Below, piece by piece: positions 5,500 through 61,866 of a stretch of 64,000 nt of DNA. Positions within the stretch are counted from its first letter, which is position 1. The number at the start of each line of letters is the position of its first letter. A program made the position numbers and the translations under genes. Under the pieces are notes generated by a model. That model searched no databases, was not told the DNA's origin, and saw nothing but the letters and a program-made list of their open reading frames with translations. Source of the stretch: Thermoplasmata archaeon. GTDB taxonomy: Archaea > Thermoplasmatota > Thermoplasmata > Halarchaeoplasmatales > Halarchaeoplasmataceae. The stretch covers positions 6,954-70,953 of the forward strand of contig JBKHFH010000003.1 of assembly GCA_046540335.1 (NCBI GenBank). Reading direction: 5' to 3'.

Positions 5500-5507
5500 T
5501 CAAAGAC

Positions 5508-5566
5508 CAAAATTTTAAAATATTTCATCAGAAATCAATCAAGTCCTAAAAATAGTAAGAGGAGGT
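5508..5566 (+). promoter_or_regulatory. Predicted archaeal promoter (TATA-like AAATTTTAAAATATTT) and Shine-Dalgarno GAGGAGGT for albA
   Basis: AT-rich TATA-like element about 50-60 bp upstream of the ATG; perfect GAGGAGGT 8 bp before the start codon. Confidence 0.5.
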
Positions 5567-5573
5567 AAGACAT

Positions 5574-5852
5574 ATGGATGATGAAAACACAGTTTTTATC
5601 GGAAAGAAGGAAACCATGAACTATGTTATGGCAGTGGTCACCCAGTTCAAAGAGGGATCCGACGAAGTGATCATAAAGGCCCGTGGAAGAGCTATCAGTA
5701 AGGCAGTCGACGTGGCCGAGATAACTAAAAATAGGTTTCTCCCCGATGCTGATATAAAAGCTATAATAACTGAAACGGAAAAGATCCCGATCGACGAAGA
5801 AGAAGGTGAAACTACCAACGTATCTTCCATCGAGATCACCTTGGAATTATAA
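5574..5852 (+). CDS. albA: Chromatin/RNA-binding protein Alba (Sso10b family)
   Basis: 92 aa; [42 protein letters not shown] matches the Alba consensus; strong RBS. Confidence 0.9.
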
Positions 5853-5921
5853 CTTCGTCCCTTACCCTTTACTTTCTCCTTTCATCGATAATATTAAAAT
5901 AATGTCAACATATCCTTAAAT

Positions 5922-6280: not shown

Positions 6281-6847
6281 TTACTTATTCTGTATGAACT
6301 TCGATACGTACGGACTGACCCCTGGCTTGTCCCTTCTGTAGTGTCCAGACGGATTTCCGTTCAAAAGTTCCTCGAACCATGCTTCGTGTTCTGTCTCCTC
6401 GTGAAGGATCGCCGCTGATAACTCGTAGGTCCTTGGATCCTTTCCATGAGTCATCTTGCAGATCTGAGTGTAAACTCCCACAGCGCATCTTTCCGCACCC
6501 AGTAACACTTCTAATATGTTCTCCGTTGTAGGATCGTCGGGAAGTTTTGCATCTTCACATGCCGCTCTATTGGCAAATTCTCTGATATCATTAGGTATCT
6601 CCCCACCCAACTCATATATACGGGGCAATAGTGCTTCGAAGTGATTCCTGTCTTCTAGTCTTGCGTCTTCGGCTATCTCTTTGATACTTTCCCCTTCCAT
6701 ACCTGTGCAGTTGTTTCTAAGGACGGTGTAATAATAGTAAGTCGTGAATTCAGCTGCAGCTGCATCTACAAGCTTCTCTTTCAGTTCATCTACATCGATC
6801 CCCGCTTCTTCTATCAATTCTACATTTCTTCGCGAAATAGTTCTCAC
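6281..6847 (-). CDS. Ferritin-like diiron protein (Dps / bacterioferritin-like)
   Basis: Paired helical E...E-x-x-H motifs ([20 protein letters not shown]) and a YYYY helix, as in ferritin-like four-helix bundles. Confidence 0.5.
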
Positions 6848-7031
6848 CCAATTACCTAAATGTAATAGTATTAAATAAACTTTACGAATTAATTATTATT
6901 GTTTTCTTAAATAGAACAATATATTACGATATTCGAGCTTTTTTTTGCGATTTATTTGGAAACGTCTCAGTTGTGATCGGGATAGAATCCTTCAAAAAAT
7001 ATATCTAATCATTCTAGCATACGAATATCGT

Positions 7032-8144
7032 ATGTCTTCAGAAGAAAAAGAATGGCCTGACTTCAGATTCACCTTGGAGGAACTAGCAGGAGCAGTAGGA
7101 GATTACGGGACTCTTCTTCCTATAGTTTTAGGAGTCGCAGTAGTTACTGAGATGAACCTGGGCCATATCTTACTGTTCTTTTCTATATGGTACATCTTTA
7201 CAGGCCTTTACTACAGGAAGCCAGTACCCGTCGAACCCATGAAGGCTATAGGGGCGATAATCATAGCCGGTCAGTTCACCCAAACTGAGATAGCAGCTAC
7301 CGGTATAGTCTTAGGTCTCTTTTTCCTAATGTTAGGGTTTTTAGGAGGTATGAAGCTTATAGAAGAAAAGATACCGCAGAGCATCATCAGAGGAGTTCAA
7401 TTGGGACTCGCCCTTATACTCTTAGAGACATCTTTAGACTTTCTGATAACTGACTACACGATTTCTTTTTTCTCTATAGCGATTATAGTTTCATTTTTTG
7501 CCGTTAAACAATTCAAAGAAATACCCGATGTTTCTTCCTTGATAGTTTTAGCTTTAGGCTTCATCATAGGTGTCTCAACTCACGGTTTCCCCCCTATAGA
7601 ACTGATGCCGATTCCTTCAATTCTGATCCCTGATCTGCAGGATTTCTTCACAGGGACTTATCTTTTAGCGCTACCCCAGATCCCGCTCACCGTTACCAAC
7701 TCGATCCTTGCGACCTCTCTTTTGATGAGTGATCTATTCAGAAAAAAACTTGATCCCGACAAACTTTCCAAAACGATAGGATTGATGAACATAGTCTCGA
7801 CACCTCTCAGTGGCTTTCCGATGTGTCACGGATCAGGAGGTCTAGCAGCTCAATATAGGTATGGTGCTAGAACTGGGGGCTCTAACATCCTGAGTGGAGT
7901 TATACTTCTGTTTATAGCCTTCGGCTTTGCCAGTGCAGCGTTCGTTAATATTTTGCCCATGGCCATCTTTGGGGCGCTTCTAGTTTTCGTAGCAGTAGAG
8001 CTTGGAAAGCACTCTTTCAAAACTGAATCCTATCTGATCACGATCATCGTAGCAGTTTTATCTCTTTTAGCAAATATAACCATTGGATTCATCGCTGGTC
8101 TAGGGGTTTATTATCTCATAAAGATTTTAAGTAAGAGTGGATGA
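7032..8144 (+). CDS. MOT1-family (SulP-related) molybdate/tungstate permease
   Basis: About 10 TM protein with VPVEPMKAIGAIIIAGQF and SGFPMCHGSGGLAAQYRYGARTG, the two signature motifs I recall for MOT1 molybdate transporters (PxPVQPMKxIxAxA and FGxMPxCHGAGGLAxQYxFGxRTG). ORF track start 6945; M at 7032 chosen. Confidence 0.6.
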   Translation: MSSEEKEWPDFRFTLEELAGAVGDYGTLLPIVLGVAVVTEMNLGHILLFFSIWYIFTGLYYRKPVPVEPMKAIGAIIIAGQFTQTEIAATGIVLGLFFLMLGFLGGMKLIEEKIPQSIIRGVQLGLALILLETSLDFLITDYTISFFSIAIIVSFFAVKQFKEIPDVSSLIVLALGFIIGVSTHGFPPIELMPIPSILIPDLQDFFTGTYLLALPQIPLTVTNSILATSLLMSDLFRKKLDPDKLSKTIGLMNIVSTPLSGFPMCHGSGGLAAQYRYGARTGGSNILSGVILLFIAFGFASAAFVNILPMAIFGALLVFVAVELGKHSFKTESYLITIIVAVLSLLANITIGFIAGLGVYYLIKILSKSG

Positions 8145-8214
8145 TCCGGATACGCAAGATTTATTAATTCTTAATCCATGGCTGATTCCAGATAGAGTTA
8201 AAAAAGGTGAAATT

Positions 8215-10092
8215 ATGTCAGGACATTGGGGAAAATTGTTGAGGATAGATCTGGGCGACGGCAGTGCTCAGGAAGAAGAACTTTCTGAAGACTTCTTGAA
8301 GAAATTCATAGGAGGCGCCGGTTTTACTACGAAAATACTATATGATGAAGTTGGAGAGGACGTTGAGCCTCTCTCCGAAGAGAACAAGCTGATAATGGCA
8401 CCCGGCCTCTTGGTCGGTCCGAAAGTACCCACGGGATCAAAGACCGCCTTCGGATTCAAAAGTCCACTTACTGGCGGTTACGGTAAGTCCATCGTCGGGG
8501 GTAAATTGGGCGATGAGCTCAAGAAAGCTGGCTACGATGCTCTTATCATAGAAGGTAAAGCGGATGAACGTTCGGTAGTGATTATAGATGACGGAGAAGT
8601 GAAATTGGAAGAAGCCGAAGATATGTGGGGCAAAGATACCCATGAAGCTGGCGACGTGATAAAAGAAAAATACGATGATGTCGAGACCGCAGTTATCGGA
8701 CCCGCCGGTGAAGAACTCTCAAAGATCTCGCTCGTAGAATGTAATGAAAGACAGGCTGGAAGAGGCGGTATCGGTGCGGTCATGGGTTCTAAAAACTTGA
8801 AAGGTATAGGTATCAGAGGATCTAAAGATTATCCGATACATGACAAAGATAAATTGGACGAACTCATCTCCGAATACAGGAAAGAGACACAAGAACAAGG
8901 CAAAACCGATATGGAGTACGGTTCCGGAGAAGCTCTACACCCGCTGAACGTGGAGATAGGGGCTTTCCCGGTCAAGAACTGGGAAGCCGGGTATTTCAAA
9001 GAGGCTTATGAAGAACTGGAAGATCCAGAAGCTGGTAGGATAGATATAGATCCTAGGAAATGGACGGAGGAATATAGAGATGGTAGAAGACCCTGTCCTT
9101 ATTGTACAAAACCCTGCAGCCAGTACTTTAAAGCTGAAGATACGCCGTATGGCGATATAGGAATAGATGGACCAGAATACGAAACTCAATACTCATTAGG
9201 TGGAAACTGCGGTGTAGACGATGTTGAAGCAGTTGCAAAGGCTAACGAACTCTGTGATAAACTGGGCCTAGATACCATTTCAGCAGGAGTGACAATTGCA
9301 TGGGCTATGGAGGCCTATGAAAAGGGATTATTGGAGACTGACTTGGACCTAGAATTCGGGAACGCCGAAGCGATGATAGAAGCCGTTAGAAGGATGGGTA
9401 AGAAAGAAGGTGAACTCGGTGAAATGCTTTACAACGGTGTGAAAGAAGCCGCTAAGAAACTAGGTCAAGGTTCTGAAGAATTCGCTATCCACATGAAAGG
9501 TATGGAACCCCCGGGATACGAGGCTAGAGGTATGTTCGGAATGGGACTCGCTATGGGTGTTGCTCCTAGAGGGGGAGATCACCTCACTTCTTGCGCTTAC
9601 GCCTTGGACTACGGTGGTAGTTTCTGGTATTTTGACGACTACAAGAGAAGAGACGTGGTTTCTAAAGGATTCCCACTAAAGATGATGGAAGACCTGATGA
9701 TGATATTCGATATGACTGGGATATGCAAGTTCTCAAGAGGTATATATCTAGACAAAAATCAGGTCGGTTTGGTCAATGCGATCACAGGATGGGATGTGAC
9801 CAACGGAGAGTTATTGAGAGCTGGTGAGAGAGGCCATAACGTTGCGAAGGCTTACAATGTGAGAGAAGGATTCCAGAGAGAAGACGACTACCTGCCTGAA
9901 AGGGTATATAGAGAAGAGGTCCCCTATGGTCCAAACGAAGGAGCACGCATCAAACCAAGGGATTATGAGGAAGCATTGAACCGATACTATATGGCTAGAG
10001 GTTGGAGTCTCGAAGGCATTCCAACAAAAGGAAAACTTGAAGACCTAGACCTTACCGATGTTGCGGAAGAAGTAGGTGCTACAAAACAGTAA
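8215..10092 (+). CDS. aor: Tungsten-containing aldehyde:ferredoxin oxidoreductase (AOR family)
   Basis: N-terminus MSGHWGKLLRIDLG; KSPLTGGYG pterin-binding loop; 626 aa typical of AOR; Cys residues for the 4Fe-4S cluster; GGTGA RBS upstream of the internal ATG at 8215 (ORF track begins at 8137). Confidence 0.88.
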   Translation: MSGHWGKLLRIDLGDGSAQEEELSEDFLKKFIGGAGFTTKILYDEVGEDVEPLSEENKLIMAPGLLVGPKVPTGSKTAFGFKSPLTGGYGKSIVGGKLGDELKKAGYDALIIEGKADERSVVIIDDGEVKLEEAEDMWGKDTHEAGDVIKEKYDDVETAVIGPAGEELSKISLVECNERQAGRGGIGAVMGSKNLKGIGIRGSKDYPIHDKDKLDELISEYRKETQEQGKTDMEYGSGEALHPLNVEIGAFPVKNWEAGYFKEAYEELEDPEAGRIDIDPRKWTEEYRDGRRPCPYCTKPCSQYFKAEDTPYGDIGIDGPEYETQYSLGGNCGVDDVEAVAKANELCDKLGLDTISAGVTIAWAMEAYEKGLLETDLDLEFGNAEAMIEAVRRMGKKEGELGEMLYNGVKEAAKKLGQGSEEFAIHMKGMEPPGYEARGMFGMGLAMGVAPRGGDHLTSCAYALDYGGSFWYFDDYKRRDVVSKGFPLKMMEDLMMIFDMTGICKFSRGIYLDKNQVGLVNAITGWDVTNGELLRAGERGHNVAKAYNVREGFQREDDYLPERVYREEVPYGPNEGARIKPRDYEEALNRYYMARGWSLEGIPTKGKLEDLDLTDVAEEVGATKQ

Positions 10093-10108
10093 ACCTTTAC
10101 TAAAACAC

Positions 10109-10121
10109 CTTTTCTTTTTTT
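10109..10121. terminator. T-tract terminator between convergent aor and PiT genes
   Basis: TTTCTTTTTTTG run immediately after the aor stop, in a convergent intergenic region. Confidence 0.4.
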
Positions 10122-10147
10122 GCCATCCTCAAAATTTCTAAAAATAT

Positions 10148-11095
10148 TCATCCTACAACGTATTGAAAGATATTTCCAAGTGTATAAGTCAGACCAATAG
10201 CTACGAATATCGCTGATATCCAAGCTCCAGAGGTTAACACTATCTTTCTCTTCCCTACACTCCAGCCACTTATAACCATCCCACTTCCTATGATCGATGC
10301 AATTATGGCCTGGCCGAAAGAGATCGGAACGCCGATAAAAACTCCGATTTGAGCGAGGATCGCTGCCGTTGCTAAAGCCGAAACCGACCTTCTTGGCCCG
10401 AGATTGGAATATTCGAATGTAACAGCCTCGATTATTTTAGGGGACAAAACCCAAGCACCGATAAGAATCGAAAAACCTCCGAGAGGCAATAGCCAAAAAA
10501 GCTCAAATCCCATCCCCATCAAAGGGCCAACTGCCTTTCCTACGGAGTTTGCACCAGCGGTATAGGCCACGAAGAGTCCTAATAATAGGGTCGCATAGTG
10601 GATGGATTTCTTAGATCCTTCCTTGGAAACATACTTTTTAAGCAACCTGGCTATCGAATAGGCAATTATAACAGCCAAAATTGGCACAAGAGCCCAGTAA
10701 CCCACTATCTTTTGGATTGTTACCCATTCCACACTAACCCCAAAACTGAAGGCACTCCCGATAACCGATCCAACGACAGTAAAGGCAGTCGGCATAGGAT
10801 ACTTCGTTAAGACACTTATTATTACAAGTACAGGAGCCACGATCAGTATGCTAAGTGCCTGAAGTGGCTGTATATCTCCGAATATCATCTTGGAACCCAC
10901 TGTTGAGGCCACATTACCCCCTTGGACCACTGCTCCTAGACAGGCAGCTATACCTGCAAGCAGAGCTGATTTCAGGACCCCGATGTTTCTAGAAAAGGTA
11001 ACTGGACCAAAAGCCGGAGGAACAGCTGACGCGCCTATAGATATGCCCATGAAAACAGATGCGATGAATGTGAAAAATATTAGGAAGTCTATCAT
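10148..11095 (-). CDS. PiT-family inorganic phosphate (or sulfate) permease
   Basis: Polytopic membrane protein with two divergent copies of the PiT GANDVANAFG-like repeat (GISIGASAVPPAFGPV; AYTAGANSVGKAVGPLMG). Confidence 0.55.
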   Translation of the reverse strand: MIDFLIFFTFIASVFMGISIGASAVPPAFGPVTFSRNIGVLKSALLAGIAACLGAVVQGGNVASTVGSKMIFGDIQPLQALSILIVAPVLVIISVLTKYPMPTAFTVVGSVIGSAFSFGVSVEWVTIQKIVGYWALVPILAVIIAYSIARLLKKYVSKEGSKKSIHYATLLLGLFVAYTAGANSVGKAVGPLMGMGFELFWLLPLGGFSILIGAWVLSPKIIEAVTFEYSNLGPRRSVSALATAAILAQIGVFIGVPISFGQAIIASIIGSGMVISGWSVGKRKIVLTSGAWISAIFVAIGLTYTLGNIFQYVVG

Positions 11096-11847
11096 TTTCC
11101 CTTTTCCCTAAGACCTCTTTTGATGGTTTTCCTTAGTTCATCATCGGGTATATTAACGGTCAGTAGATAATGGTCATCATCCTTTTCTTCCAAGTTTATG
11201 GAAAGGTGCTCGGTGTCAAAATAGTAGGGATTGAGTTTCAGCATCACTTGTTCGTAAATTGCTTCCTCCATCTTTCGGAGCGATTCTATAGACTTGGAGC
11301 CGATCAGACGGTTAATACTTTTTGATGCGTCTTTCAATTCGGCTGATGGAGATTTATTTTCTTCTGTACCTTTGATTTCCTTCTTTTTATCAGGAGGGGC
11401 AGTATTTTCCTCAGTTCTATCGACATTTTTTTGAGATTTCTTTGACTTGTTGTTTATTAGATTATTCATACCTTTAGAAGCGTTGTCTTTCAATTCTACA
11501 ATAGCTGATTTTCCTTTGTCTTTAGCCCCATTTATGCCCTTTTTAACTTTCTTACCTGCTGATTTAAGTTCTTCGTTTGTTCCCTTGAAGTCCTTCTCTA
11601 CACCTTTCTTTTTGATCGCGGCTTGTTCGGCCGTTCTTTTAGAGAGATCTTTTTCATCTTCTTCTTCTCGAGGACGCCATTTGTTGTAACCTTCTATTGA
11701 ATCATCCATGTTTTCAGCTGTGTCTTCCTTCTCATAACTCTCTTTCAGTATCCTCTCTAAATCCCTTGCAAACCCACATATTTCCTCCCAGTTCCCTTCA
11801 ATCCTTATACCAGAATGTGTGGTTTTCTGCTTTTGTTTACTCATCAT
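11092..11847 (-). CDS. Lys/Glu-rich low-complexity hypothetical protein, translationally coupled to the PiT permease
   Basis: 251 aa, central K/E/N-rich disordered region, ordered C-terminal segment YFDTEHLSINLEEKDDDHYLLTVNIPD; 4-bp ATGA overlap with the downstream permease. Confidence 0.45.
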   Translation of the reverse strand: MMSKQKQKTTHSGIRIEGNWEEICGFARDLERILKESYEKEDTAENMDDSIEGYNKWRPREEEDEKDLSKRTAEQAAIKKKGVEKDFKGTNEELKSAGKKVKKGINGAKDKGKSAIVELKDNASKGMNNLINNKSKKSQKNVDRTEENTAPPDKKKEIKGTEENKSPSAELKDASKSINRLIGSKSIESLRKMEEAIYEQVMLKLNPYYFDTEHLSINLEEKDDDHYLLTVNIPDDELRKTIKRGLREKGK

Positions 11848-12020
11848 TGCTCAATGGTAAAATAATGTTATAAAAAGATTTCGATTTGTATTGGTTTATT
11901 AACCGAAAAGGGGGTCGAAAAATTTATCATATCTCGAAATGAATTTTACTAAGCACATCTAATAAACATGGTATCTCGCCACTAAAAAGTCACCCCAACA
12001 TCTTTTTATATCATCCATGT

Positions 12021-13748: not shown

Positions 13749-14462
13749 ATGATCCAAGAACTTCCCGTTATCAGCGTGGTCGGTGATTCCGACTCTGGTA
13801 AGACCGAGCTCATCTGTCAGTTGATCGAAGAGCTCAGAGGATCAGGCTATGATGTGGCGACGATAAAGCATACCAGAGGTGATTTCAGCATCGATACTGA
13901 AGATAAAGATACATGGAAACATTCTAAAGCCGGTGCGGAGCTAGTTGTCTTTTCCAGTCCAGAGGAATCCGACTTCTTATACCAACGCTCCTTAGAACTG
14001 GAAGAACTGGTATCACACATCGAAGAATTCGGGGATCATGACCTAGTGCTGGTAGAGGGTATGAAAGAAGAGGACATACCCAAGATAAGCGTTGGAGAAG
14101 GATTTGAAGATGAATCGGGGATGCATTATTCTGGAGATATGGAGACGATCCTAGATTATATAGAGAGAAAAATTGAATTGCATAATATACTCATAGAGCT
14201 GGCCGGTCAGGACTGCGGGGAGTGCGGATATCCGAGCTGTGAAGAGCTCGCAGAATCGATATTAGAAGGTGAAAATTCAATCGATGACTGTCAAAAACTC
14301 GAGAATACAGAAACTGTTAAACTTTGGATAAATGGAGAAAGTGTTTCTTTAGGGAGATTTCCTGCTAATATGGTCGAAAAGACTATCAGAGGGATGCTCA
14401 GTTCCCTAAAAGGCATCGAGGGCGACGAAAACGATATCGAGATCGAGATAGATGAGAGGTAG
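13749..14462 (+). CDS. mobB: Molybdopterin-guanine dinucleotide biosynthesis adaptor MobB fused to a C-terminal Fe-S cluster domain
   Basis: VISVVGDSDSGKTELICQLI P-loop ... ATIKHT ... LVLVEGMK are MobB hallmarks; C-terminal CGECGYPSCEEL...DDC resembles a PF04060-type Fe-S binding domain. Confidence 0.75.
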   Translation: MIQELPVISVVGDSDSGKTELICQLIEELRGSGYDVATIKHTRGDFSIDTEDKDTWKHSKAGAELVVFSSPEESDFLYQRSLELEELVSHIEEFGDHDLVLVEGMKEEDIPKISVGEGFEDESGMHYSGDMETILDYIERKIELHNILIELAGQDCGECGYPSCEELAESILEGENSIDDCQKLENTETVKLWINGESVSLGRFPANMVEKTIRGMLSSLKGIEGDENDIEIEIDER

Positions 14463-39805: not shown

Positions 39806-42800
39806 TCAAAGTTCATATTTATCTTCTCTTTTATTTATTTTTTCTCTACCGAGCTCTCTCTCCAGTTCACTCAAACTCTTACCTTCATCACTTATCTCTT
39901 TAGGTCTCCAGAAGATTTTATCAAAGAGGACTATGATAGCTATAGCGACTATCGTCGTGATGATCCACCAATTCTCTCTCAATCTCTCTGAAAAACTGTC
40001 TTTCTCGATTTTAATTTCCATACTATCCACTGCATTGTTGCCTGCCTCGTCCCAAACTCTGACTTCTATGGTGTGCTCACCCTCTTCAAGTCCGTCAAAA
40101 AGATATTTTGTTTCTTTCCCAACTTCGATCCACTCTCCTCCATCGATCCTTACTTCATACTTTTCTACACCTGACCCATCATCGTAGCCCTCCCAGCGGA
40201 CCCTAATGTTGTCCTCACTCAAGGACTCACCGTTTTTAGGTTCCAATATCTGAATGACTGGCTCAGTCACATCTACTGTGAATGTGACATTATCTTTTAC
40301 TACCTTTCCAGTCTCATCCGCTGCTCTAACATAAACCTCGTACTCGCCCTCTCTAAGATCTGTCAGATTATATTTTTGGCCTGTACCAGCTCTGTTCCAT
40401 CTACCGCCACGTATGCTCACAAAATGTTCCTCAGTATTTTGAGATGTCCACTCCACCGTGACATCGCGGCTGTTAATAGACGCAGCCTCATCTGGCCCCT
40501 TTATTTCCAACTCGACTTTCCTGACACTGAAGCCTACACTGTCATACTTGATATAACCCTCTCCGTCAACAGCCCGAACACTCAGCTTGTAATCACCATC
40601 CTTTAGATCGCTAAAGGTGTACTCTGTTTTGGTACCTACATCTCTCCATTCAGTGGACTCATTATCTCTTCCTTCAAGTCTTATCTCGCTGTATTCCATA
40701 TTTCTTGCCTTCCATTCCACCCTCACCTTTGATCTCCTTTCTATACTCGATGGCCTAGGAGCCTTTATCTCTACAAATACATCGGTTTCAACTTTGAATT
40801 CGACCGAATGGGATGCTGTCTCTTCATCATCTTCTACTATCACCTCAACAGTGTGATATCCATCATCTAAATCTTCAAAAGTATATTCACTCATACCTCT
40901 AACATCTATCCAAGCCCCTCCGTCTAATCTGATTTTCGCATCAACATTCCTTTTCCCACCTTTTAAAGCCCATCTTACATCAACTTCAGATGAGAAAATC
41001 ATGTCTTTATCTCTAGGGTCAATGATGGATACACTGAGTCCATCTACAGGGTCGGTATCTATCAAAGGATACCTGTCTTTGCTGCTATCCCCCATGATCT
41101 CATATGAAATATTCCAGAAGCCGGATTTTGGAGCTTCACCTGCTTCAGGATACCGTATGGCGTAGTTGGACCAATAATTACCCTCCATTTTATGATCCCA
41201 GATATTCCCACCTGTGTCATAAGCTAAACTCTGCTCTTCTAAGCGGGGGTGATCGGCTCTAGTGATATCATTGTGATATATCTTATTTTCATCTGAATTG
41301 ACGACATATAATCCATAAATATCGTTGTTGTAGAATTCATTACCGAAAATAATATTCTGCTCAGAGTATGAAAGGTATGCTCCGTGTATCTGATTATGAG
41401 AGATATTGTTCTCCGATATCGTGTTCTTGTCTGAATCAACCATGTACAACCCTAGATAGTTGTGTTTTATCCTATTGCCCTTTAGGACGTTTCGGTCAGA
41501 ATATCTAAGGGTGATACTCAGACTCTGATCAAATAGAGTATTGTTGACTATCTCGTTACCTTCCGAAAATCCAAGGGTCACACCCAACTTTCCGGACTCT
41601 ATTTCTTTATCCTTTATTACTAAATTGGTAGAGTTCGCTATGAGGATTTGACCAGCGTCTTCTTCAATGATAGCACCGTCTTCATCTACATCCCCATCGA
41701 TATTTTTAAGATAATATATCCGTTTTCCATTCGACAAAGTGTTGTTGTCAGGAATAAAGTGTGTGTTCCAGTATTCGATAGACCGACCTCTCAAATTAAT
41801 ACCTCCCTCATTGAATCTGTTATTGTAGATACTATGGTTTTGGGAAGTGAAGAGTGTTAGACCATAGCCCCCATTATCTGAAAAATTACTAGTGCTGACT
41901 CTGTTACTCTTTGAAGAGAAAAACATCATCCCCGTGCCCCGATTATGCATCATGTTGTTATTTAAAAATAAATTTTTTTCGGAAGACCTAATATAGGCTC
42001 CATAGACATTGTTAAAAGAATGGAGATAAGAAATTTCATTTTCTTCTGAATCATCCATATATATACCGAAGAATCTGTTTTTATATAAGCTCATTCCGTT
42101 GACTTGGTTCATATTAGACTCTTCAAATTTTAGCCCCCTACTGTTGAAAGAAGCATTGTTTTCCTTTAACAGGTTTTCATCAGAGTTCTCCAGTAAAATC
42201 CCTTCGTCGCTGTTGATAACGCTGTTACCTGTTATATCATTGTTGTTAGAATCATCTAAAAAAATCCCATGACCATAGACAGGATGATAGGACTTTCCAA
42301 CACTGTTGTTTTCAATAGTATTTCCTTCTGATGAAGACAGATGGATACCAACATGATTATTCAAAGCTCTATTATCTTCAATTGTATTTCCGCTGGAATT
42401 TTCTAATAAGATCCCACAAGAATTTAGCTCTATCTTATTATCTATGATCAATCCGTTTTTTGTATCAGCCAGATAGATACCACTAGTCCCTGATCGTGCA
42501 TCTCGGCTGCGGTTGGCATTATAGAGTCTATTATCCCTTATTATAAAATGTGAGTCTACATCCTCGATAAAAATGGGAGAAGATTTTTCACCACCGTCTA
42601 TAGCATAACCTTCAATGAGGAACGGGTCTTCTTCGGTACCACTCCCTAACCATCCGTTTTGTTCAACCTTTGTTTCAAATTCCTCATCATCCTTTATATG
42701 TATAGGATTTATCTCTGAATACTCGGAAACATCCTCATTATCTTCGGAGAGTCTAATAGATTGAGAATCAACCCGCCTAGAGGATTGAGTGTCTGTGGTT

Positions 42801-45154
42801 TTCAATTCTGAGCTTTTACTGTTGAAGACGGTGAGAGCATAGTCCTGATCTAAAGAGCCATCGTCGGTTCCATCTTCAGGTATGTTGAACCCCTCGACCT
42901 CAACGCTATATTTACCATCTTCTGTTTCTCCGGGTCGGATATAGACGTTCTCCACATTGTTTGCATCGTCCCATCCATCCCCGTTCCTATCGAAATCTTC
43001 TATCGCATTAGAACCGGATGGAGTCCAACTCTGGGAAAATGCATTACCTCTATACGTTTTTCCACTAGGAGAAGTAACTTTCAGGTTGAGATCATTTTTC
43101 AAGGCCACATGGTCTTCGGATTCAGCGTTTTTATCAGTCCAAGCAAGAGTTATCTTCAAAGGTTCTCCCCTATCATCACACTCAAATTCATACTTCTGGC
43201 TCTCTCCACTTTCAACCGTCCTTGATTGATCTTCAACGGAAAATGGTATAGGACTGTCTTTCGGATATTCGAGTTTAGATATATCAACCATGCCCCAGCC
43301 TTCGTCTTTATTTGGAATAGGTTGGCTTCTATATCCATCACCTTTCAGATCCTCAGCAGTATTTATCAGAAGGGCTTTCACCATCGCCGGACTCGGCCTC
43401 TCATTGAATTTTTCCTCATACCACTCCACTACGATCGAAGCGGCTCCGGCAACAGCGGGATTTGACATAGATGTTCCTGATTTCCAATCGTATGTCGGTC
43501 CATCAAAAATACTAGATGATCCTAAAGAAAGAACATTTTTCCCTGGAGCGACAACATCTGGCTTTACTCTGTTATCTTCCGTCCACCCGCGTGAACTGAA
43601 CCCAGCGATACTGGAAAGTTGATGGGAATTTCCACCTCCATAATCATTACCATCCGGCATATAGGTTTCTGTCGCGCCAACAGTGATGACATTCTTCGCA
43701 TTGCCTGGACTTCCAGTGGTTTGTTCTATCGGCCCCGAATTCCCGGCAGAGACCGTTATAACCATGGGCTCTGACCGATCTGTCTCTCTGTTAGCATCCC
43801 TCACAGCCTGATCGAAGACACTTTCTAGATCAGTGTACTTTCCACCTGTACTAGCTCCCCAAGAATTGGAATGGATATACGCATCGGACTCCTGCTTCGG
43901 TTTTTCAAAGATAGGATAAAAGTTATCATCTTGTAGTAGAAAAGTACCTGCATCGCTGAACATCTTTACCGAATAAAGTTCTGAATTATAGGCAAGACCC
44001 TGTCCCATCAGGTAATCTCCAAAACCAGGGTACTCTCCATCTTCTCCACTACCGTGATATGTATCACCTGCGGCAGAACCTGTCACGTGAGTACCATGCC
44101 CGTGGCCGTCTGCCCAATCTTCTTGATCCAGCTCTCCGAAAGCATATCCTCCCTTCACTCTCTCAGTTAAATCCGGATGGCCTGAATCACCTATGGTTCC
44201 GTCTCCAATACCCGTATCTGCTATGGCTATGGTGACTCCGTCCCCACTGTATCCCATCTGATTTATATATGCTCCAAAATCCCCGTATTTCCTGTAGGGT
44301 ACGTCAGGGTCCCCATAATCGTCCTCGATTAAATCTATCCCACCGCCGATCACCTGGCTTTCCACTTCGGAATGTAATTCAGGTTCGATCCTGTTTGAGA
44401 GACTATATAAATCATCAAGGTGAGCCCAGCGCTTTAACTCTTTGGTAGAACTAACATTCAATGTTAATTCTTTCCAACCGTTCTCTAGTTCTCTAGAGTT
44501 CAACACTGGTGTTTTAAGTGTATTTTCTCTGATCTGTCTTTCAGGATCGCTGACGAACTTAGCGTTCACAGTACCAGTATCTATATCCTCAGGTATCTTA
44601 TAAGCGGGATGATAAAGACCTATCCAATCAACGAAAGATTTATCCTTTACTCTCTCTGCCTGCTCAGGAGTCATCCTCACTTCATAGGCATAGTTTGGAA
44701 CATAGTTCAAAAACTCCACCCCCTGATCTTCAATTTCTCTTCTCCATTCAGGATCGATGGGACCCAGCATATGGATTAGATAGAGACCTTCCTGTCCGGA
44801 CTCGTACCCATCTATTTCCATATCAGGTGATATATCCGGTCCTTCTTCGATATCAAAGTTATATCCTCTGATGAATATCTCCTTCCTAGAGGGTAAATTA
44901 TTGATCTCAAAACCTCTCTCAATAAGACTCCGCTTTTCTTTTTCATCACCTCTAAGTAGAGCTTTTTGTTCGTAAGTTGCTATAACTTCCAAATCGCTCA
45001 ACCGATCTATACTCTCCCCATCATCAAAACTTACAAGAAATATGTCGTCCTTTTCAGAAGGAAAATGAGGGACCTCTATCACTACAAAAAAACCAGAAAT
45101 CATGACCAACAAAACGCATACATATGCTTTGATTCTATCTTTTTGTTTATCCAT
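39806..45154 (-). CDS. Giant membrane-anchored cell-surface protein: signal anchor, subtilisin-like S8 peptidase, parallel beta-helix repeats, four Ig/Fn3-like domains, C-terminal TM
   Basis: 1782 aa. S8 catalytic triad context ADTGI (Asp), HGTHVTGS (His), GTSMSNPAVAG (Ser) at about aa 310-570. More than 20 PbH1-type repeats (N.I..N....GI.L..S..N.I) at about aa 840-1360. Four ~90-aa repeats ending ...EYTF.DL.DG.Y...V.A.D. C-terminal hydrophobic helix WWIITTIVAIAIIVLF plus charged tail. Confidence 0.85.
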   Translation of the reverse strand: MDKQKDRIKAYVCVLLVMISGFFVVIEVPHFPSEKDDIFLVSFDDGESIDRLSDLEVIATYEQKALLRGDEKEKRSLIERGFEINNLPSRKEIFIRGYNFDIEEGPDISPDMEIDGYESGQEGLYLIHMLGPIDPEWRREIEDQGVEFLNYVPNYAYEVRMTPEQAERVKDKSFVDWIGLYHPAYKIPEDIDTGTVNAKFVSDPERQIRENTLKTPVLNSRELENGWKELTLNVSSTKELKRWAHLDDLYSLSNRIEPELHSEVESQVIGGGIDLIEDDYGDPDVPYRKYGDFGAYINQMGYSGDGVTIAIADTGIGDGTIGDSGHPDLTERVKGGYAFGELDQEDWADGHGHGTHVTGSAAGDTYHGSGEDGEYPGFGDYLMGQGLAYNSELYSVKMFSDAGTFLLQDDNFYPIFEKPKQESDAYIHSNSWGASTGGKYTDLESVFDQAVRDANRETDRSEPMVITVSAGNSGPIEQTTGSPGNAKNVITVGATETYMPDGNDYGGGNSHQLSSIAGFSSRGWTEDNRVKPDVVAPGKNVLSLGSSSIFDGPTYDWKSGTSMSNPAVAGAASIVVEWYEEKFNERPSPAMVKALLINTAEDLKGDGYRSQPIPNKDEGWGMVDISKLEYPKDSPIPFSVEDQSRTVESGESQKYEFECDDRGEPLKITLAWTDKNAESEDHVALKNDLNLKVTSPSGKTYRGNAFSQSWTPSGSNAIEDFDRNGDGWDDANNVENVYIRPGETEDGKYSVEVEGFNIPEDGTDDGSLDQDYALTVFNSKSSELKTTDTQSSRRVDSQSIRLSEDNEDVSEYSEINPIHIKDDEEFETKVEQNGWLGSGTEEDPFLIEGYAIDGGEKSSPIFIEDVDSHFIIRDNRLYNANRSRDARSGTSGIYLADTKNGLIIDNKIELNSCGILLENSSGNTIEDNRALNNHVGIHLSSSEGNTIENNSVGKSYHPVYGHGIFLDDSNNNDITGNSVINSDEGILLENSDENLLKENNASFNSRGLKFEESNMNQVNGMSLYKNRFFGIYMDDSEENEISYLHSFNNVYGAYIRSSEKNLFLNNNMMHNRGTGMMFFSSKSNRVSTSNFSDNGGYGLTLFTSQNHSIYNNRFNEGGINLRGRSIEYWNTHFIPDNNTLSNGKRIYYLKNIDGDVDEDGAIIEEDAGQILIANSTNLVIKDKEIESGKLGVTLGFSEGNEIVNNTLFDQSLSITLRYSDRNVLKGNRIKHNYLGLYMVDSDKNTISENNISHNQIHGAYLSYSEQNIIFGNEFYNNDIYGLYVVNSDENKIYHNDITRADHPRLEEQSLAYDTGGNIWDHKMEGNYWSNYAIRYPEAGEAPKSGFWNISYEIMGDSSKDRYPLIDTDPVDGLSVSIIDPRDKDMIFSSEVDVRWALKGGKRNVDAKIRLDGGAWIDVRGMSEYTFEDLDDGYHTVEVIVEDDEETASHSVEFKVETDVFVEIKAPRPSSIERRSKVRVEWKARNMEYSEIRLEGRDNESTEWRDVGTKTEYTFSDLKDGDYKLSVRAVDGEGYIKYDSVGFSVRKVELEIKGPDEAASINSRDVTVEWTSQNTEEHFVSIRGGRWNRAGTGQKYNLTDLREGEYEVYVRAADETGKVVKDNVTFTVDVTEPVIQILEPKNGESLSEDNIRVRWEGYDDGSGVEKYEVRIDGGEWIEVGKETKYLFDGLEEGEHTIEVRVWDEAGNNAVDSMEIKIEKDSFSERLRENWWIITTIVAIAIIVLFDKIFWRPKEISDEGKSLSELERELGREKINKREDKYEL

Positions 45155-54664: not shown

Positions 54665-55051
54665 ATGATGTTATCTTCACTTATGGAAAAGAAAATGAAG
54701 AAATTGAGAGGGGAAGTACTGATCGCTGTCATGGATGATGGAGAGGCTTTCCTGGGAAAACTGAGAGACTTCGATGAAGACACTTTGATCCTTAATGAGG
54801 TCTACGAAGGACCCAGTTCGGAGATAAAATGGGAAACTCTAGGAGAAGAGGATGACCAATCTCCTGAGATGGGTTATGGATTTGTAGATTGGGTAAGGGT
54901 AAACCTTGAAGAGGTCTATCTGAGAGTAAATCACGTCTCTAGGATCTGGCCCTGGGAACACATTGAAGGATATGAAAAAGAGCCAAATACTAAAAAGAGA
55001 AGGGCTACTTATACCAGAACACCTGCGATAGATATCCTTTCAGAAGATTAA
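54665..55051 (+). CDS. Sm-like-fold protein, paralogue A of a three-member local family
   Basis: LRGEVLIAVMDDGEAFLGKLRDFDEDTLILNEVYE (Sm1-like) ... GFVDWVRVNLEEVYLRVNHVSRIWPW; shares its architecture with the two ORFs below. Confidence 0.6.
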   Translation: MMLSSLMEKKMKKLRGEVLIAVMDDGEAFLGKLRDFDEDTLILNEVYEGPSSEIKWETLGEEDDQSPEMGYGFVDWVRVNLEEVYLRVNHVSRIWPWEHIEGYEKEPNTKKRRATYTRTPAIDILSED

Positions 55052-55182
55052 AGAAATACGATTACCGATAAAGTCTTTTATTCTCTCTCAGCTTGATCAG
55101 GCTTAAAACCAAAATCCTATTATTAAAGTAGGATAAAGAATAAAAAAGAAAAGGTGAACATAGGTCATTTTAGTGATTTGAT

Positions 55183-55629
55183 TCAACCGGGGTGGGTTCC
55201 CGGGATGTCCCCTATACTAGATGCTCTCTCCTCTGGTACTTTATCTCTTTTCGTGTAAACAGGTTTCCTAGATTCATCTGATCTCGGCGTCTGCTTCCCT
55301 TTTTCCTTTTTTTTCCATCGCCATATCCGTGTAACATGTGCAGTTTGGATGTACGCCTCTTCTAGATTTACTTTTGTCCAATCGATAAAACCGAATTTCT
55401 CTTTCTGCTCAATTTTTTCTCTTCCTCCCCCTGATTCCGAAGATATCCCTTTCCAATCGATCTCATTGGATGGTGATTGATAAACATTTTTAAGGACCAA
55501 CGTGTGTTTATCGTATTCTCCTAGCTCTCCAAGAAAGGCTAGCCCGTCGTCCATCACAATTAGTATGTCATCACCTTTAAGTTCTTTCAATTTTTTCTCC
55601 AATAACTCATCAAACATATTTCCCTTCAC
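55183..55629 (-). CDS. Sm-like-fold protein, paralogue B
   Basis: LLEKKLKELKGDDILIVMDDGLAFLGELGEYDKHTLVLKNVYQ ... FGFIDWTKVNLEEAYIQTAHVTRIWRW plus a basic K/R tail. Confidence 0.6.
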   Translation of the reverse strand: MKGNMFDELLEKKLKELKGDDILIVMDDGLAFLGELGEYDKHTLVLKNVYQSPSNEIDWKGISSESGGGREKIEQKEKFGFIDWTKVNLEEAYIQTAHVTRIWRWKKKEKGKQTPRSDESRKPVYTKRDKVPEERASSIGDIPGTHPG

Positions 55630-55803
55630 CCTAACATATGATACGATTATCCCGTTATAATAACTTATCCCAGGTAGAAATGAAAGCGGGGGATAAAATA
55701 CTTCAAGCCTTTAATACAACCGAGTTATATAGAGTAAACTCGAAAGAGAGCCAACGATCATCTGGAAATGAAAGATTTATCTCCTTATCTTATCAGCAGA
55801 TAT

Positions 55804-56190
55804 CTATAGATATTCTTTTTCATAATAGATAGGCCTGGTTCGACCTTTTTCGCCTTTTTTTGCTTCATTAGGTAGCTCTTCCTTTTTGGTCCAAGGCCAA
55901 ATTCTCGAGATATGATCGATTCGGACATACACTTCTTCCAGATTCACCTCGGTCCAAGTGGCAAATCCTGCCCTTTTATCTTTCTTGTCAGCACCTCTTT
56001 GCATTTCCGCTGGTGATATCTCCTTCCAATCTATATCCTTAAATTTGGACTGTAAAACCTTTTTCAGGACTAAAATGTTCCTATCGTACTCTTTAAGTTC
56101 TCCAACAAATCCAAGGCCATCGTCCATCATCACCAAAATATCCTCATTTTTTAAACCGCTGAGTTTTTTCTCCAATAATTCAACCGACAT
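55804..56190 (-). CDS. Sm-like-fold protein, paralogue C
   Basis: LLEKKLSGLKNEDILVMMDDGLGFVGELKEYDRNILVLKKVLQ ... GFATWTEVNLEEVYVRIDHISRIWPW plus a basic tail. Confidence 0.6.
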   Translation of the reverse strand: MSVELLEKKLSGLKNEDILVMMDDGLGFVGELKEYDRNILVLKKVLQSKFKDIDWKEISPAEMQRGADKKDKRAGFATWTEVNLEEVYVRIDHISRIWPWTKKEELPNEAKKGEKGRTRPIYYEKEYL

Positions 56191-56233
56191 CTTTTCTCCT
56201 CTTTCAAAGTGTTTTCACATAATTAATTATTTT

Positions 56234-56244
56234 GGGGGGGGGGG
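56234..56244. repeat. G11 homopolymer tract (C11 on the coding strand of the flanking genes)
   Basis: tttggggggggggaccc seen directly; lies 44 bp upstream of the paralogue C start, in a 42% GC genome. Confidence 0.8.
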
Positions 56245-56370
56245 ACCCTCAAAAACTCTCCGCAGCTATAATACCGAAACCTATAGCCTTTTCTTCTAGA
56301 GTATCCATATCTTTAACAAGTGAAAGAGCCGGCTCTTTTCCCTCGATAGCAATTACGACTTCCAATATCT

Positions 56371-57567
56371 CTAACTTAACGGAGTCTTTTTAGATTTTTC
56401 AGCCAGCTCTCTCGCTTTCAGGGCGTGATCTTCAGCTCTCTGAAGTTTTCCATCTTTGAGATATGATAAACTTATCTCTTTGTTTGTTATTGACTTTATC
56501 TCTTCGTTTTCCATGAAACCCAGATATTCATGAACTCTTTCGTACTCTCCTTTCTCTAGCAGATTCTTTATTAGTTCTTTATAAATTTGGTCCCTCTCCC
56601 ATCTGTCTTCTATAGTTTCGACCAACTTCAAAGCTTGATCAACTAAAGCCTTGTGGATAAGATCAGTTGCTATAATTCTAATCAAAGTATCTCTGATGTC
56701 ATCACTTTCGATGTCTCCAACTATTTTCAGTGCATTTTCCCATAATCCTTCATCTGATAGCGCTATACCTAATTCCATCAAATAGATGTCGCCTGCTCCA
56801 CTTTGATTTATCTCCTCGATTAGGGTTTTAGCTTTTTCAGTTTCCCCGAGTCTTAAAAAAGTCTTTCCAATGATACATTTTATCCATTTCTCATCCTCTC
56901 TAGTATTAAAATCACTTGTCAGTGCAAGTGCATATCGGCATAGTTCTTCGACCTCGTCATCACCCATTCTGGCTTTCATCTCCGCTACTAAAGTTAAAGG
57001 TACTATGTTTTTCCCATCTTTAGACAGATTTAAAGCGGGTCGGAGAGCCCGTTCTAGATTCTTTTTTGCCCTCTCAACAAGTCCAAGATCAAGCTGCTCT
57101 TCAGCCACAGAGATGAAAATATCGACTAACTTTTGATCGTCTTTTATTTTCTCAGCCTCCTTTAACCCATATCCAAAGATTTCCTGATATTTACTTTCGA
57201 ATTCATGCTTTAAAAATGTAGACGCCAATCGAGATAATGTCTTTACTTTTTCAGATGTTACTTTCACCTGAAAGGCGGAATCTAGAGCTTCATCGCCAAA
57301 TTTCTTCGCTAGATAGATCAGATCGTTCTCCAAAAATACATCGATAACCTCGTTAATCACTAGAGCTCTGCTGTTGGATGAAGGAAGTGAGTTCAATGTA
57401 TCTATACTTTTCTGGAGAGTAGTTGCGGTTAGTGAATTTCCACCTTCTCTTCTCATCTCATCGATGATCTCGCCTAAAGTTTTAGGGTCATCATTGAGTA
57501 TTTCAAAACGCCGTCCCATGGTCAATCTTTTACTATATGAAAGGTAATTAATGTCAGTTTCTATCAC
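56371..57567 (-). CDS. All-alpha helical-repeat (TPR/HEAT-like) hypothetical protein
   Basis: 398 aa of repeated amphipathic helix pairs; no catalytic motifs. Confidence 0.5.
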   Translation of the reverse strand: MIETDINYLSYSKRLTMGRRFEILNDDPKTLGEIIDEMRREGGNSLTATTLQKSIDTLNSLPSSNSRALVINEVIDVFLENDLIYLAKKFGDEALDSAFQVKVTSEKVKTLSRLASTFLKHEFESKYQEIFGYGLKEAEKIKDDQKLVDIFISVAEEQLDLGLVERAKKNLERALRPALNLSKDGKNIVPLTLVAEMKARMGDDEVEELCRYALALTSDFNTREDEKWIKCIIGKTFLRLGETEKAKTLIEEINQSGAGDIYLMELGIALSDEGLWENALKIVGDIESDDIRDTLIRIIATDLIHKALVDQALKLVETIEDRWERDQIYKELIKNLLEKGEYERVHEYLGFMENEEIKSITNKEISLSYLKDGKLQRAEDHALKARELAEKSKKTPLS

Positions 57568-59539: not shown

Positions 59540-59821
59540 TCACTTCTTCCTATCGAAGTACCATTTATAGAGTAAAGCCATATCTCTAGGGAATAATGCC
59601 AGGCGATCACCGTCCTGGACTTCTCTTTCAGGATGTGAATATTCTCTATTCAAGAATATATGGCTCACATCACTTTCATCCAGACCGAGATGTTCTAAAA
59701 TATCAGAGATCCGTCCTAAGCTTTTTTCTTCTATCTCTTTTTTGTCGATCGAGCCTGTTTCGACTTTAGTTTCGTCAGCTTTAGATTTAAGTTTACCGTA
59801 CAATTTTATATTTATACCCAT
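59540..59821 (-). CDS. ThiS/MoaD-like beta-grasp protein with C-terminal extension (no terminal GG)
   Basis: IKLYGKLK...VQDGDRLALFP beta-grasp pattern followed by RDMALLYKWYFDRKK; adjacent to a bona fide MoaD/SAMP gene. Confidence 0.4.
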   Translation of the reverse strand: MGINIKLYGKLKSKADETKVETGSIDKKEIEEKSLGRISDILEHLGLDESDVSHIFLNREYSHPEREVQDGDRLALFPRDMALLYKWYFDRKK

Positions 59822-59836
59822 TTTTTCAACCCTATC

Positions 59837-60115
59837 TTAGCCACCACCGATCGGCGGAAATACTGATATTTTATCTCCTTCTTTTAACTCAGTTTCTAGG
59901 CCGTTCAAGTAAGTTATATTTCTACCGTCCTTAATGACTGTTACGTTATCACTGAGCTCATTTTGGTCGCGATCCTTGAATATCAGATCATCTAACCTAG
60001 GATTTTTGTCAATCAGTTCTTTAAGAGCATCTTTGACCTTTTCAGCAGAAACGTGCAATTCCTTTTGACCGGCTTTTTCAGCCAAATTTGCAAACAGTTT
60101 TATTTTGACAGACAT
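59837..60115 (-). CDS. MoaD/SAMP-type small ubiquitin-like sulfur-carrier / modifier protein
   Basis: 92 aa, beta-grasp pattern, ends ...KEGDKISVFPPIGGG with the diglycine terminus. Confidence 0.7.
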   Translation of the reverse strand: MSVKIKLFANLAEKAGQKELHVSAEKVKDALKELIDKNPRLDDLIFKDRDQNELSDNVTVIKDGRNITYLNGLETELKEGDKISVFPPIGGG

Positions 60116-60141: not shown

Positions 60142-61866
60142 TTAGTCCTCTCTAAAGACATTATCCAATTCTTCATCGGAAACATCGAACACTGTGTTGT
60201 GTGGCGGAAGTTCTTCTTTTTTCATAAACTCGGGCATCCTGTCGTCTTCTTTAGAGAAGCCCGCTGCTTTGTTAAACTCTCTCTCCATCTTTAGGATATC
60301 CATGCCCATCTCCATGACTTCTTCTGTGGAATAGTCGGTTCCCAAGACTCCATTTACAGTTTCTATCATCCCTTCCATTCCTTCGTTTATATCCATAGTT
60401 GCGAACGCGATGAATAAACAGTAGCCAGCTGTATCGATCATCGCGGTAGCCTGCTGAAGTGATTTAGAAAGATCCGCCTTTTCAGTATCCATCGGATCGG
60501 CTTCTCCACCGACGCCCATTATTTCTGGGGCGATAGCGTAACCAGCGGTGTGGTCCGCGCCCATCGGCGTAGTCGCATAAGTCACACCTATACCTTTTAT
60601 AGCTCTCGGATCATAAGCTGGCATGGCCTGACCCTTCACTGTTGGAATCCGGTTGACCCCGAACGCTTCTCCTGTGAATTCTGCTCCGTTCGCCAGTATT
60701 CTACCTAACGGCGTTTTATCGTAAATCTCGTCCATCAATTCTAAGGCTTTTTCACCGTCACCGAAATCTAAGAGACCGCCTTCCATCGCAACAGCTAAAG
60801 TATTTCCCGCCTCTATAGTATCTAGACCTAGATCGTTGCACGCACGGTTAAGTTCTCCTATAGTGTCTAAATCATAGATACCGCAGTTCGGACCTAGAGA
60901 CCAAACTGACTCGTATTCAAGAACCCCAACAGGATCTTCACCGCCTTCTTTCGTCCATATCTCCGAACACTGTATTATACAGCTAGGGCTGCACTTGTGC
61001 GGTCTTACACCGCCTCTCTCTTCGATAAGTTCTGCTTTCCTCTCACCGGAGACCTGCGATGATCTCTCGTCGCTGCCCTCTGAGAAATTCCTTTGGGGGA
61101 GGGCGCCGCTCTCGTTTATTATGTTTATAAGAACTGAAGTTCCGTAAGAATTCAATGCGCCGTCTTTTTTAGTGACGTCGTGTTCCATAAGAGCATTGGC
61201 CAATTTTTTTCGACCCTGATCGAATGTCTCTTTGTCCTTTATCTCTTTCTTGTTTTCATCTGTGTTAGCTGCGACAATAAATTTCAGACCTCGTGAAGCC
61301 ATCACAGCTCCTAGTCCTCCTCTGCCTGAATATCTGCTCGATCTTCCTTCCGGATCAGTGAATGCGATGCCGGCGTTTGAAGCATTCAGTTCGGCCGCAA
61401 TACCTGCTCCAGCTATCTCTATATCTTCTTCGAACTGTTCATGTAGTTCGACATAGGCGTCGTACAGTCCTTTTCCGACCCATTCGTCAGCCTCTATCAG
61501 TTCTTCCTTTCCATCTCCAACTTTTAAGAGATAGTACTTGTCTTTTTCCGGCTTACCTTCAACTATTATGGCTTTGATCCCGTTCCGGGCTAGATTCCGG
61601 GCGAATGGTGTTCCGGCATTAGATTCTTTTATTCCTCCTGTAAGAGGGGATTTACCTCCTGCTGAAAGTCTTCCTGAATTTGGTGCGCCGGTTCCCGTTA
61701 CTATCCCTGGTGCAAGAACTAGTTTATTGTTCGGTCCTAACGGATGTGCGTTGGGTGGGACCTCCTCTGATACTATAGTCGAGGTAAGGCCTCTTCCTCC
61801 TAATTTTTCATAATCCTCAGGGACTTCTTCTTCTTTAATCTCCAGGTTCTCCATATCGACTCTCAA
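60142..61866 (-). CDS. Aldehyde:ferredoxin oxidoreductase family tungsto/molybdopterin enzyme, second paralogue (FOR/GAPOR-like)
   Basis: GKSPLTGGIKESNAG pterin loop; N-terminal domain plus two pterin-binding domains; clearly divergent from the first aor (574 aa). Confidence 0.8.
   Translation of the reverse strand: MRVDMENLEIKEEEVPEDYEKLGGRGLTSTIVSEEVPPNAHPLGPNNKLVLAPGIVTGTGAPNSGRLSAGGKSPLTGGIKESNAGTPFARNLARNGIKAIIVEGKPEKDKYYLLKVGDGKEELIEADEWVGKGLYDAYVELHEQFEEDIEIAGAGIAAELNASNAGIAFTDPEGRSSRYSGRGGLGAVMASRGLKFIVAANTDENKKEIKDKETFDQGRKKLANALMEHDVTKKDGALNSYGTSVLINIINESGALPQRNFSEGSDERSSQVSGERKAELIEERGGVRPHKCSPSCIIQCSEIWTKEGGEDPVGVLEYESVWSLGPNCGIYDLDTIGELNRACNDLGLDTIEAGNTLAVAMEGGLLDFGDGEKALELMDEIYDKTPLGRILANGAEFTGEAFGVNRIPTVKGQAMPAYDPRAIKGIGVTYATTPMGADHTAGYAIAPEIMGVGGEADPMDTEKADLSKSLQQATAMIDTAGYCLFIAFATMDINEGMEGMIETVNGVLGTDYSTEEVMEMGMDILKMEREFNKAAGFSKEDDRMPEFMKKEELPPHNTVFDVSDEELDNVFRED

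Follow-up and report, generated by a model that had tools for sequence, protein, structure and literature searches.

Three short open reading frames (ORFs) that lie side by side in the genome of a halophilic Thermoplasmata archaeon (GTDB order Halarchaeoplasmatales; assembly GCA_046540335.1, contig JBKHFH010000003.1, positions 6,954 to 70,953 of the forward strand) raise the question of what kind of protein they encode and how they came to lie together. In the following, the window is this whole stretch of 64,000 nucleotides, and all positions refer to it. The preliminary description reported ORFs of 128, 148 and 128 amino acids (aa) in the orientation + - -, and our ORF scan reproduced all three. 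The gene of the first paralogue, p1, occupies 54665-55051 (+; 128-aa ORF), with a probable start at 54668 according to NCBI-type gene calls, which yields a protein of 127 aa (P0032). The second, p2, is convergent to p1; its ORF reaches a GTG at 55629 (55183-55629, -, 148 aa) and the NCBI-type gene calls begin at the ATG at 55617 (55183-55617, 144 aa, P0001). The third, p3, is located at 55804-56190 (-, 128 aa). Three metagenome-assembled genomes (MAGs) at NCBI and five independent Logan read-set assemblies show the order p3-p2-p1 with identical proteins, so the cluster is real and no misassembly. We lean towards the reading that these proteins are ancient paralogues of a lineage-restricted Sm/LSm subfamily, probably ring-forming and associated with RNA via a non-canonical surface, whose genes were clustered stepwise.

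The paralogues are related over their whole length. End-to-end alignment with MAFFT gave pairwise identities of 36-43%, and BLASTP reported 37-48% identity at 84-110 bits, far beyond chance. Against the Pfam LSM model (PF01423) the scores were 14.1 bits for p1, 15.0 bits for p2 and 18.4 bits for p3 (E = 0.0017), all under the gathering threshold of 23.4 bits; LSM ranked first for p1 and p3 and second for p2. Some family members have a precomputed PF01423 match and distant relatives pass at 28-31 bits, which puts the family on the fringe of this model. An NCBIfam search gave noise-level matches only. Compared with solved structures, the family profile found 1YCY first (E = 2.5e-8), followed by LSm8, LSm5 and SmB.

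The AlphaFold2 model of p2, calculated with a 112-sequence alignment, contains a helix at residues 4-12 and strands at 17-22, 26-35, 39-49, 88-91 and 95-100; the predicted local distance difference test (pLDDT) values are 75-88 in the core and below 50 for residues 56-76 and for the tail from residue 105. The corresponding model of p1 (ma67209b3197c) shows a helix at 3-12 and strands at 17-22, 26-35, 39-49, 54-57, 69-72, 83-86 and 90-96. Both models have a common topology and confident cores; the low-confidence segment sits in both between β3 and β4, and the tail (pLDDT below 50) is devoid of secondary structure in either. All significant Foldseek matches of the p1 model were Sm/LSm chains. 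Taken with the profile matches, these predictions give the Sm/LSm fold for p1, p2 and p3, as the preliminary description had supposed when it proposed structure prediction as a check.

The sequence blocks quoted in that description are genuine and strongly constrained across 112 family members, and the models assign a structural place to each of them. The Sm1-like segment corresponds to helix α1 and strands β1-β3, the variable charged loop together with the GF.DW motif to an elongated β3-β4 hairpin, i.e. loop L4, and the VNLEEVY..H.SRIWPW block to β4-L5-β5, the divergent Sm2 half. The W-rich second motif is no new module but the divergent Sm2 half (β4-β5) together with the base of the elongated L4 hairpin. 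The extensions beyond the typical Sm-like archaeal proteins (SmAPs) of ~75 aa are indeed present and consist of the L4 hairpin and a disordered tail. Sm proteins classically vary in length at L4 (PMC3710371). Within the family, P0018 (214 aa, p2-type) carries an extra acidic insert of ~70 aa at the L4 tip and P0135 (151 aa) a long K/S/D-rich low-complexity insert at the same position, so that L4 tolerates domain-size insertions. P0018 was also considered as a natural tandem fusion, which was rejected, as it is a p2-type protein with an L4 insert. P0172 (1229 aa) was dismissed as a family member, since the match to this repeat protein is spurious.

Ten residues are invariant in the 112 family members (numbering of P0001, the 144-aa form of p2): G30, L32, D36, W55, G76, W80, H94, R97, W99 and Y121. 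G30 and D36 correspond to the strictly conserved Gly of β2 and Asp of loop L3, which are the hallmark of Sm proteins (PMC3710371), and both are still invariant in an alignment widened with the distant relatives. Loop L3 lacks one residue compared with canonical Sm proteins: where LSm8 (FDKNTNLFL) and LSm5 (FDEYVNMVL) have the L3 Asn, HMMER places a one-residue gap in the family profile, and 1YCY aligns to the profile gap-free. The position of the Sm2 IRG motif reads Y-I-R/Q-x-x-H, with Arg at position 91 in 83% of the members and Gln in p2; the Gly is absent. The elements that define the uridine pocket, L3 Asn plus an aromatic residue and Arg-Gly in L5, are therefore not conserved in the family, with the Asn deleted and the Sm2 RG degenerate, and judged from these residues the canonical pocket is probably not used. 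His94, Arg97, Trp99 and Trp101, together with the Trp55/Trp80 pair on the L4 hairpin, would probably form a different ligand surface. The strands β4 and β5 are predicted and highly conserved. By analogy to all characterised Sm proteins, each subunit would pair its β4 with the β5 of a neighbour, resulting in hexameric or heptameric rings, and by the same analogy such rings would bind RNA or scaffold a ribonucleoprotein.

The tails had been described as K/R-rich. They are mixed-charge polyampholytes with a net charge of -1 in p1, +5 in p2 and +2 in p3 and a family median of 0; what persists is the motif [RK][RK]-P-[IV]-Y, with P119 conserved in 91% and Y121 in 100% of the members, and several distant relatives also show it.

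These features set the family apart from the known Sm-fold proteins. In comparison with SmAP1/SmAP2 (1loj, 1ljo, 1th7; PF01423), which have ~75 aa, the family proteins are longer (~125-145 aa) and have an elongated L4 hairpin with the invariant Trp pair and a disordered tail with P-[IV]-Y; their L3 is shorter by one residue and has no uridine-contacting Asn, and their Sm2 half reads Y-I-R/Q-x-x-H-V-S-R-I-W-P-W without the Gly. The closest solved relative is 1YCY (Pfu-1806301-001), a "conserved hypothetical protein" of 71 aa from Pyrococcus furiosus. It resembles the family in the absence of the canonical L3 Asn and Sm2 Gly, but it is a minimal Sm domain without L4 extension, RIWPW block or tail; a literature search on 1YCY found no functional or descriptive paper in the searchable library. 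Identity to the eukaryotic Sm/LSm proteins with a long L4 (SmB, SmD2/D3, LSm4, LSm11) is 11-26%, with no orthology. The eukaryotic members keep the uridine pocket of Asn and RG. The "augmented" SmAP3 of Pyrobaculum aerophilum (1m5q) owes its additional length to an autonomous C-terminal domain (PMC3710371), unlike the family, in which the extra residues are found in the L4 hairpin and the disordered tail. The traits of Hfq, a short L4, the Sm2 sequence YKHAI and a bacterial-type hexamer, are likewise not those of the family.

A word-indexed search retrieved 113 family proteins, followed by a cliff from E = 4e-28 to 5e-8; p1 itself matches the family profile at E = 4e-51. Every member with an organism name comes from a MAG of halophilic Thermoplasmatota, the named hosts being Candidatus Natronoplasma, Saliniplasma and Haladaptatiplasma, with Natronoplasma in the order Halarchaeoplasmatales. 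An exhaustive profile search of 1.84 billion representatives yielded 80 proteins at E <= 1e-3, nine of which belong to the core family. About 60 of the 80 are distant full-length relatives of 90-140 aa with a like layout; JGI names several of these "snRNP-like", and two of the distant relatives (P0198, P0194) are encoded convergent to ECF-transporter operons, a context that is uninformative. According to these searches the subfamily is small, confined to one lineage of halophilic Thermoplasmatota and placed on the fringe of the known LSM family. A literature search found no paper describing it in the searchable library, and searches on Natronoplasma and Halarchaeoplasmatales returned nothing on Sm proteins. 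Neither the window nor 737 kb of related DNA yielded a canonical short SmAP.

How old are the three copies? We scanned GTDB species representatives and inspected ±6 kb around each family gene, which covered 53 loci in 36 other genome assemblies. All 53 loci contain a single family member. Natronoplasma-like genomes possess one p1-, one p2- and one p3-type gene on three different contigs, and more distant genomes have one or two copies; since MAGs are incomplete, these counts are minimum values. The gene neighbourhood is conserved within each type and differs between the types. The orthologues of p1 come after UbiB-AKR and are followed by DUF5828 (UbiB-AKR-p1-DUF5828). Those of p2 lie downstream of a helical-repeat gene and upstream of MFS-MatE, in the order M32 peptidase (-), helical-repeat gene, p2, MFS, MatE, and in 14 of 14 dispersed loci those of p3 are flanked by genes for a Na/sulfate symporter (-) and an Asp-Al_Ex permease (-). 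A single-copy "ancestral-type" form is convergent to Nop-NMD3-DUF424-MCM in 15 loci, a neighbourhood that may hint at RNA metabolism. Directly upstream of this single-copy gene and co-directional with it, 13 of the 15 loci (L018-L049; e.g. L034 5482-5949) encode a protein of ~156 aa whose N-terminal part matches PIN_10/DUF5615 weakly and whose C-terminus is a coiled coil.

A neighbour-joining tree rooted with the distant relatives placed each window paralogue in a clade of its own, with p1 grouping with the Nop-adjacent form and p2 and p3 as sisters. The three proteins are 36-48% identical to each other versus 58-76% to their orthologues at other genomic positions elsewhere. Separate orthologue clades with separate conserved neighbourhoods indicate that the paralogues are old and were brought together secondarily.

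The way in which this happened can be followed in metagenome contigs. In a first stage, represented by L073-L075, L078/L079 and L080, the order is helical-repeat→p3→p2→MFS→MatE. The p3 genes at the new position (window, L071, L072, L073) form one clade that lies among the p3 genes of the Asp-Al_Ex locus, in favour of one relocation only; p3 moved between the helical-repeat gene and p2 once, in an ancestor of at least five lineages. These five tandem lineages are distinct, with p3 proteins that are 67-80% identical. The second stage was observed in sample ERR11420199, where L072 contains M32, helical-repeat gene, p3 and p2, and L070 contains AKR→p1→ followed by an MFS gene on the opposite strand. 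Over its terminal 160 bp, L070 matches the end of L071 (p3-p2-MFS) in reverse complement with 98% identity. This overlap gives a stage-2 locus of the order AKR→p1→ ←MFS ←p2 ←p3 ←helical-repeat, with contig joins that combine two samples. The window species represents the third stage and has the same order minus the MFS gene. According to this series, the p1 locus joined tail-to-tail, initially with the MFS gene in between, which the window species then lost.

The p1 side of the junction left a further trace. In L042, L047, L050 and L069, p1 is directly followed by the DUF5828 gene (11095-11847, -, in the window) and the block to which it belongs (6284-11850), and a lineage with a 73%-identical p1 keeps the ancestral order AKR-p1-DUF5828. 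In the window the DUF5828 block is located 43 kb from p1 and inverted, thus the p1 junction arose via a large rearrangement. A single inversion was rejected as a model for the p1-p2 junction, since the genes next to the other predicted breakpoint at ~11.9 kb (DRG-type GTPase, DUF116, MobB) are not the ancestral neighbours of p2 (MFS, MatE). The L070/L071 intermediate accounts for the junction better.

An earlier conclusion from the GTDB representatives, that the genes are never clustered elsewhere, was overturned by these contigs, which stem from lineages nearer to the window than any GTDB representative. As to the clustering beyond the window that the preliminary description had brought up, the answer is divided: the 53 dispersed loci do not support a module that is conserved in general, but homologues do cluster in other genomes, as the helical-repeat→p3→p2 order recurs in at least four further lineages, one of them also with p1. 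Counting the window species, the p3-p2 tandem is found in at least five lineages and p1 joined in at least two. The genomes show old copies and a stepwise clustering in one sub-lineage.

The gene next to the trio, described as a 398-aa all-alpha ORF, was reproduced at 56371-57567 (-); it shares the strand of p3 and immediately precedes it. As described, it probably encodes a TPR/HEAT-like helical-repeat protein: Pfam TPR_12 matches just under its threshold (E = 5.6e-6, 26.9 bits versus a cut-off of 30.1), other TPR, PPR and HEAT models match weakly, and a profile of the orthologues finds TON_1535 (3zpj), an archaeal helical-repeat protein, as best match in the PDB (E = 2e-6, over part of the length only). 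The orthologues have 422-428 aa versus 398 aa in the window. Three-frame translation against L072, L073 and L008 revealed that the last ~46 codons are found in another frame at 56249-56389 (-; KDSVKLEILEVV...IGFGIIAAESF*), where they match the C-termini of the orthologues, which points to a 1-nt deletion or frameshift near 56386-56389. The same 398-aa product is called in other assemblies of this species. In two other loci (L006/L007) the gene has shrunk to 134 aa, and between lineages its identity is 24-38% versus 76-84% for the adjacent M32 peptidase. It stands upstream of p2 or p3 and co-directional with them in at least nine lineages.

The spacers between the helical-repeat gene and p3 and between p3 and p2 each contain a TATA-like box that is conserved in five lineages, plus a GGAG/GGTGA motif. 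The spacer alignment of these lineages located the AT-rich box of p3, AAATWATTAATTAT, at 56219-56233 (-), ~30 nt upstream of the start and followed by GGAG, and the box of p2, AAGTTATTATAA with an invariant TATTATA, at 55655-55666 (-), 38-49 nt upstream of the ATG. We infer that these boxes are the own promoters of p3 and of p2; as p1 in addition points towards p2, the genes seem to be transcribed separately. A G11/C11 homopolymer (56234-56244) separates the box of p3 from the ancestral stop of the helical-repeat gene; further assemblies of this species (L054, L058, L062, L056, L063) share it, and it is missing from the orthologous spacers of other lineages. A 113-aa ORF antisense to p3 (55958-56299, +) was rejected as a gene, its apparent homologues in other loci being a shadow of the conserved p3 coding sequence.

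Several points weigh against an old, RNA-associated, ring-forming family. With the canonical RNA-contact residues missing, RNA binding is argued from analogy of the fold, and this fold also has several members that bind no RNA. A consistently basic tail is lacking. The proximity of the single-copy form to Nop-NMD3 is a weak hint, as the Sm-like gene is convergent and the whole block is generally syntenic. A search of the whole window with Rfam at gathering thresholds and with ARAGORN found no RNA gene, Rfam family or tRNA. In addition, the trees are neighbour-joining trees without support values.

One alternative is that the genes came together neutrally, as rearrangements reshuffled a variable intergenic region, and that the proteins act independently. 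In L076/L077 the spacer between the helical-repeat gene and p2, which holds p3 in the window and in four other lineages, contains an IS605-type TnpB gene (4717-5904; OrfB_IS605 / Cas12f1-like_TNB, 395 aa); the gap is thus insertion-prone and looks like a hotspot. The further local decay in the window, i.e. the frameshift, the G11 run and the loss of the MFS gene, and the inferred separate promoters agree with this alternative. On the other hand, it is unlikely by chance that successive independent events bring the whole three-member family within 1.5 kb, and the p3-p2 tandem was kept in at least five lineages despite the divergence of their p3 proteins. We consider neutrality possible, although on the unlikely side.

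A different function is proposed by the view that the proteins are protein-protein adaptors with an Sm fold that do not bind RNA and serve as ring or dimer scaffold like Gemin6/7, Naa38 in NatC or MnxE/F. The P-[IV]-Y motif of the tail and the Trp-rich surface would then be used for protein docking, possibly for the helical-repeat protein encoded upstream. The absence of the canonical uridine-binding Asn and RG, the short conserved linear motif within a disordered tail and the co-directional helical-repeat gene upstream in at least nine lineages would fit this view. However, the poor conservation of the helical-repeat gene, its frameshift in the window and the 134-aa remnant make an obligate partnership with the Sm-like proteins doubtful; p1-type, dispersed p3-type and single-copy members do not have this neighbour at all, and the best structural matches are RNA-binding Sm/LSm proteins. 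An adaptor function therefore seems rather doubtful to us.

It is also conceivable that a single hetero-oligomeric Sm ring requires p1, p2 and p3 together and that the clustering was selected for balanced co-expression. All three types are kept together in the Natronoplasma-like genomes, at least two independent rearrangements gathered them at one locus in one sub-lineage, and the residues of the β4/β5 interface are nearly identical among the paralogues. In other archaea, co-immunoprecipitation of SmAP paralogues has been reported (PMC3710371). Yet the genes are dispersed in most genomes, many relatives show only one or two copies, so that homomeric assembly must be possible, and p2 and p3 each have their own promoter-like box with p1 convergent to p2. 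We regard obligate partnership as improbable. More specific, and in our estimate quite improbable, is the idea of a single heteromeric p1-p2-p3 ring that represents an independent archaeal move from homomer to heteromer with a new Trp/His/Arg ligand surface in place of the canonical uridine pocket.

The recent local tandem triplication assumed in the preliminary description has adjacency and shared architecture in its favour, but it is refuted by the orthologue trees and the synteny, as each paralogue is closer to its orthologues than to the other two, falls into a different clade and belongs to a different set of conserved neighbours.

The remainder of the window is ordinary chromosomal housekeeping DNA without mobile-element genes, and its proteome is acidic (median isoelectric point 4.95). 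Several genes share a Mo/W-cofactor theme: a MOT1-type molybdate transporter (6945-8141), two aldehyde:ferredoxin oxidoreductases (8137-10089 and 60145-61866), MobB (13749-14459) and two ThiS/MoaD-like genes (59543-60115). At 39809-45154 (-) a predicted surface protein of 1782 aa is encoded, which combines a subtilase S8 domain, NosD/right-handed β-helix repeats and several Ig-like/PKD/fn3 domains.

Sm proteins serve in textbooks as the example of a ring that is homomeric in archaea and bacteria and became heteromeric in eukaryotes by duplication of paralogues. In the uncultivated halophilic archaea described here, three old paralogues of a structurally modified Sm domain have been retained, and one sub-lineage has gathered their genes progressively; what is established is the fold, the distribution and the genomic history only. 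The Sm/LSm kind as such is known, and the undescribed variant combines the long L4 hairpin with its Trp pair, the short L3 that 1YCY also has, the RIWPW-type Sm2, the P-[IV]-Y tail and, in a euryarchaeal-type lineage, three old paralogues that cluster progressively. Provided that the genomes also encode canonical SmAPs, they would possess at least four Sm-fold genes, a number that was unknown in archaea according to a 2013 review. If the paralogues do co-assemble, they would offer a tractable prokaryotic model for the evolution of heteromeric Sm rings, and the gathering of their genes would record selection for co-expression. Otherwise, the family and the orphan structure 1YCY still stand for an uncharacterised subtype of Sm proteins.

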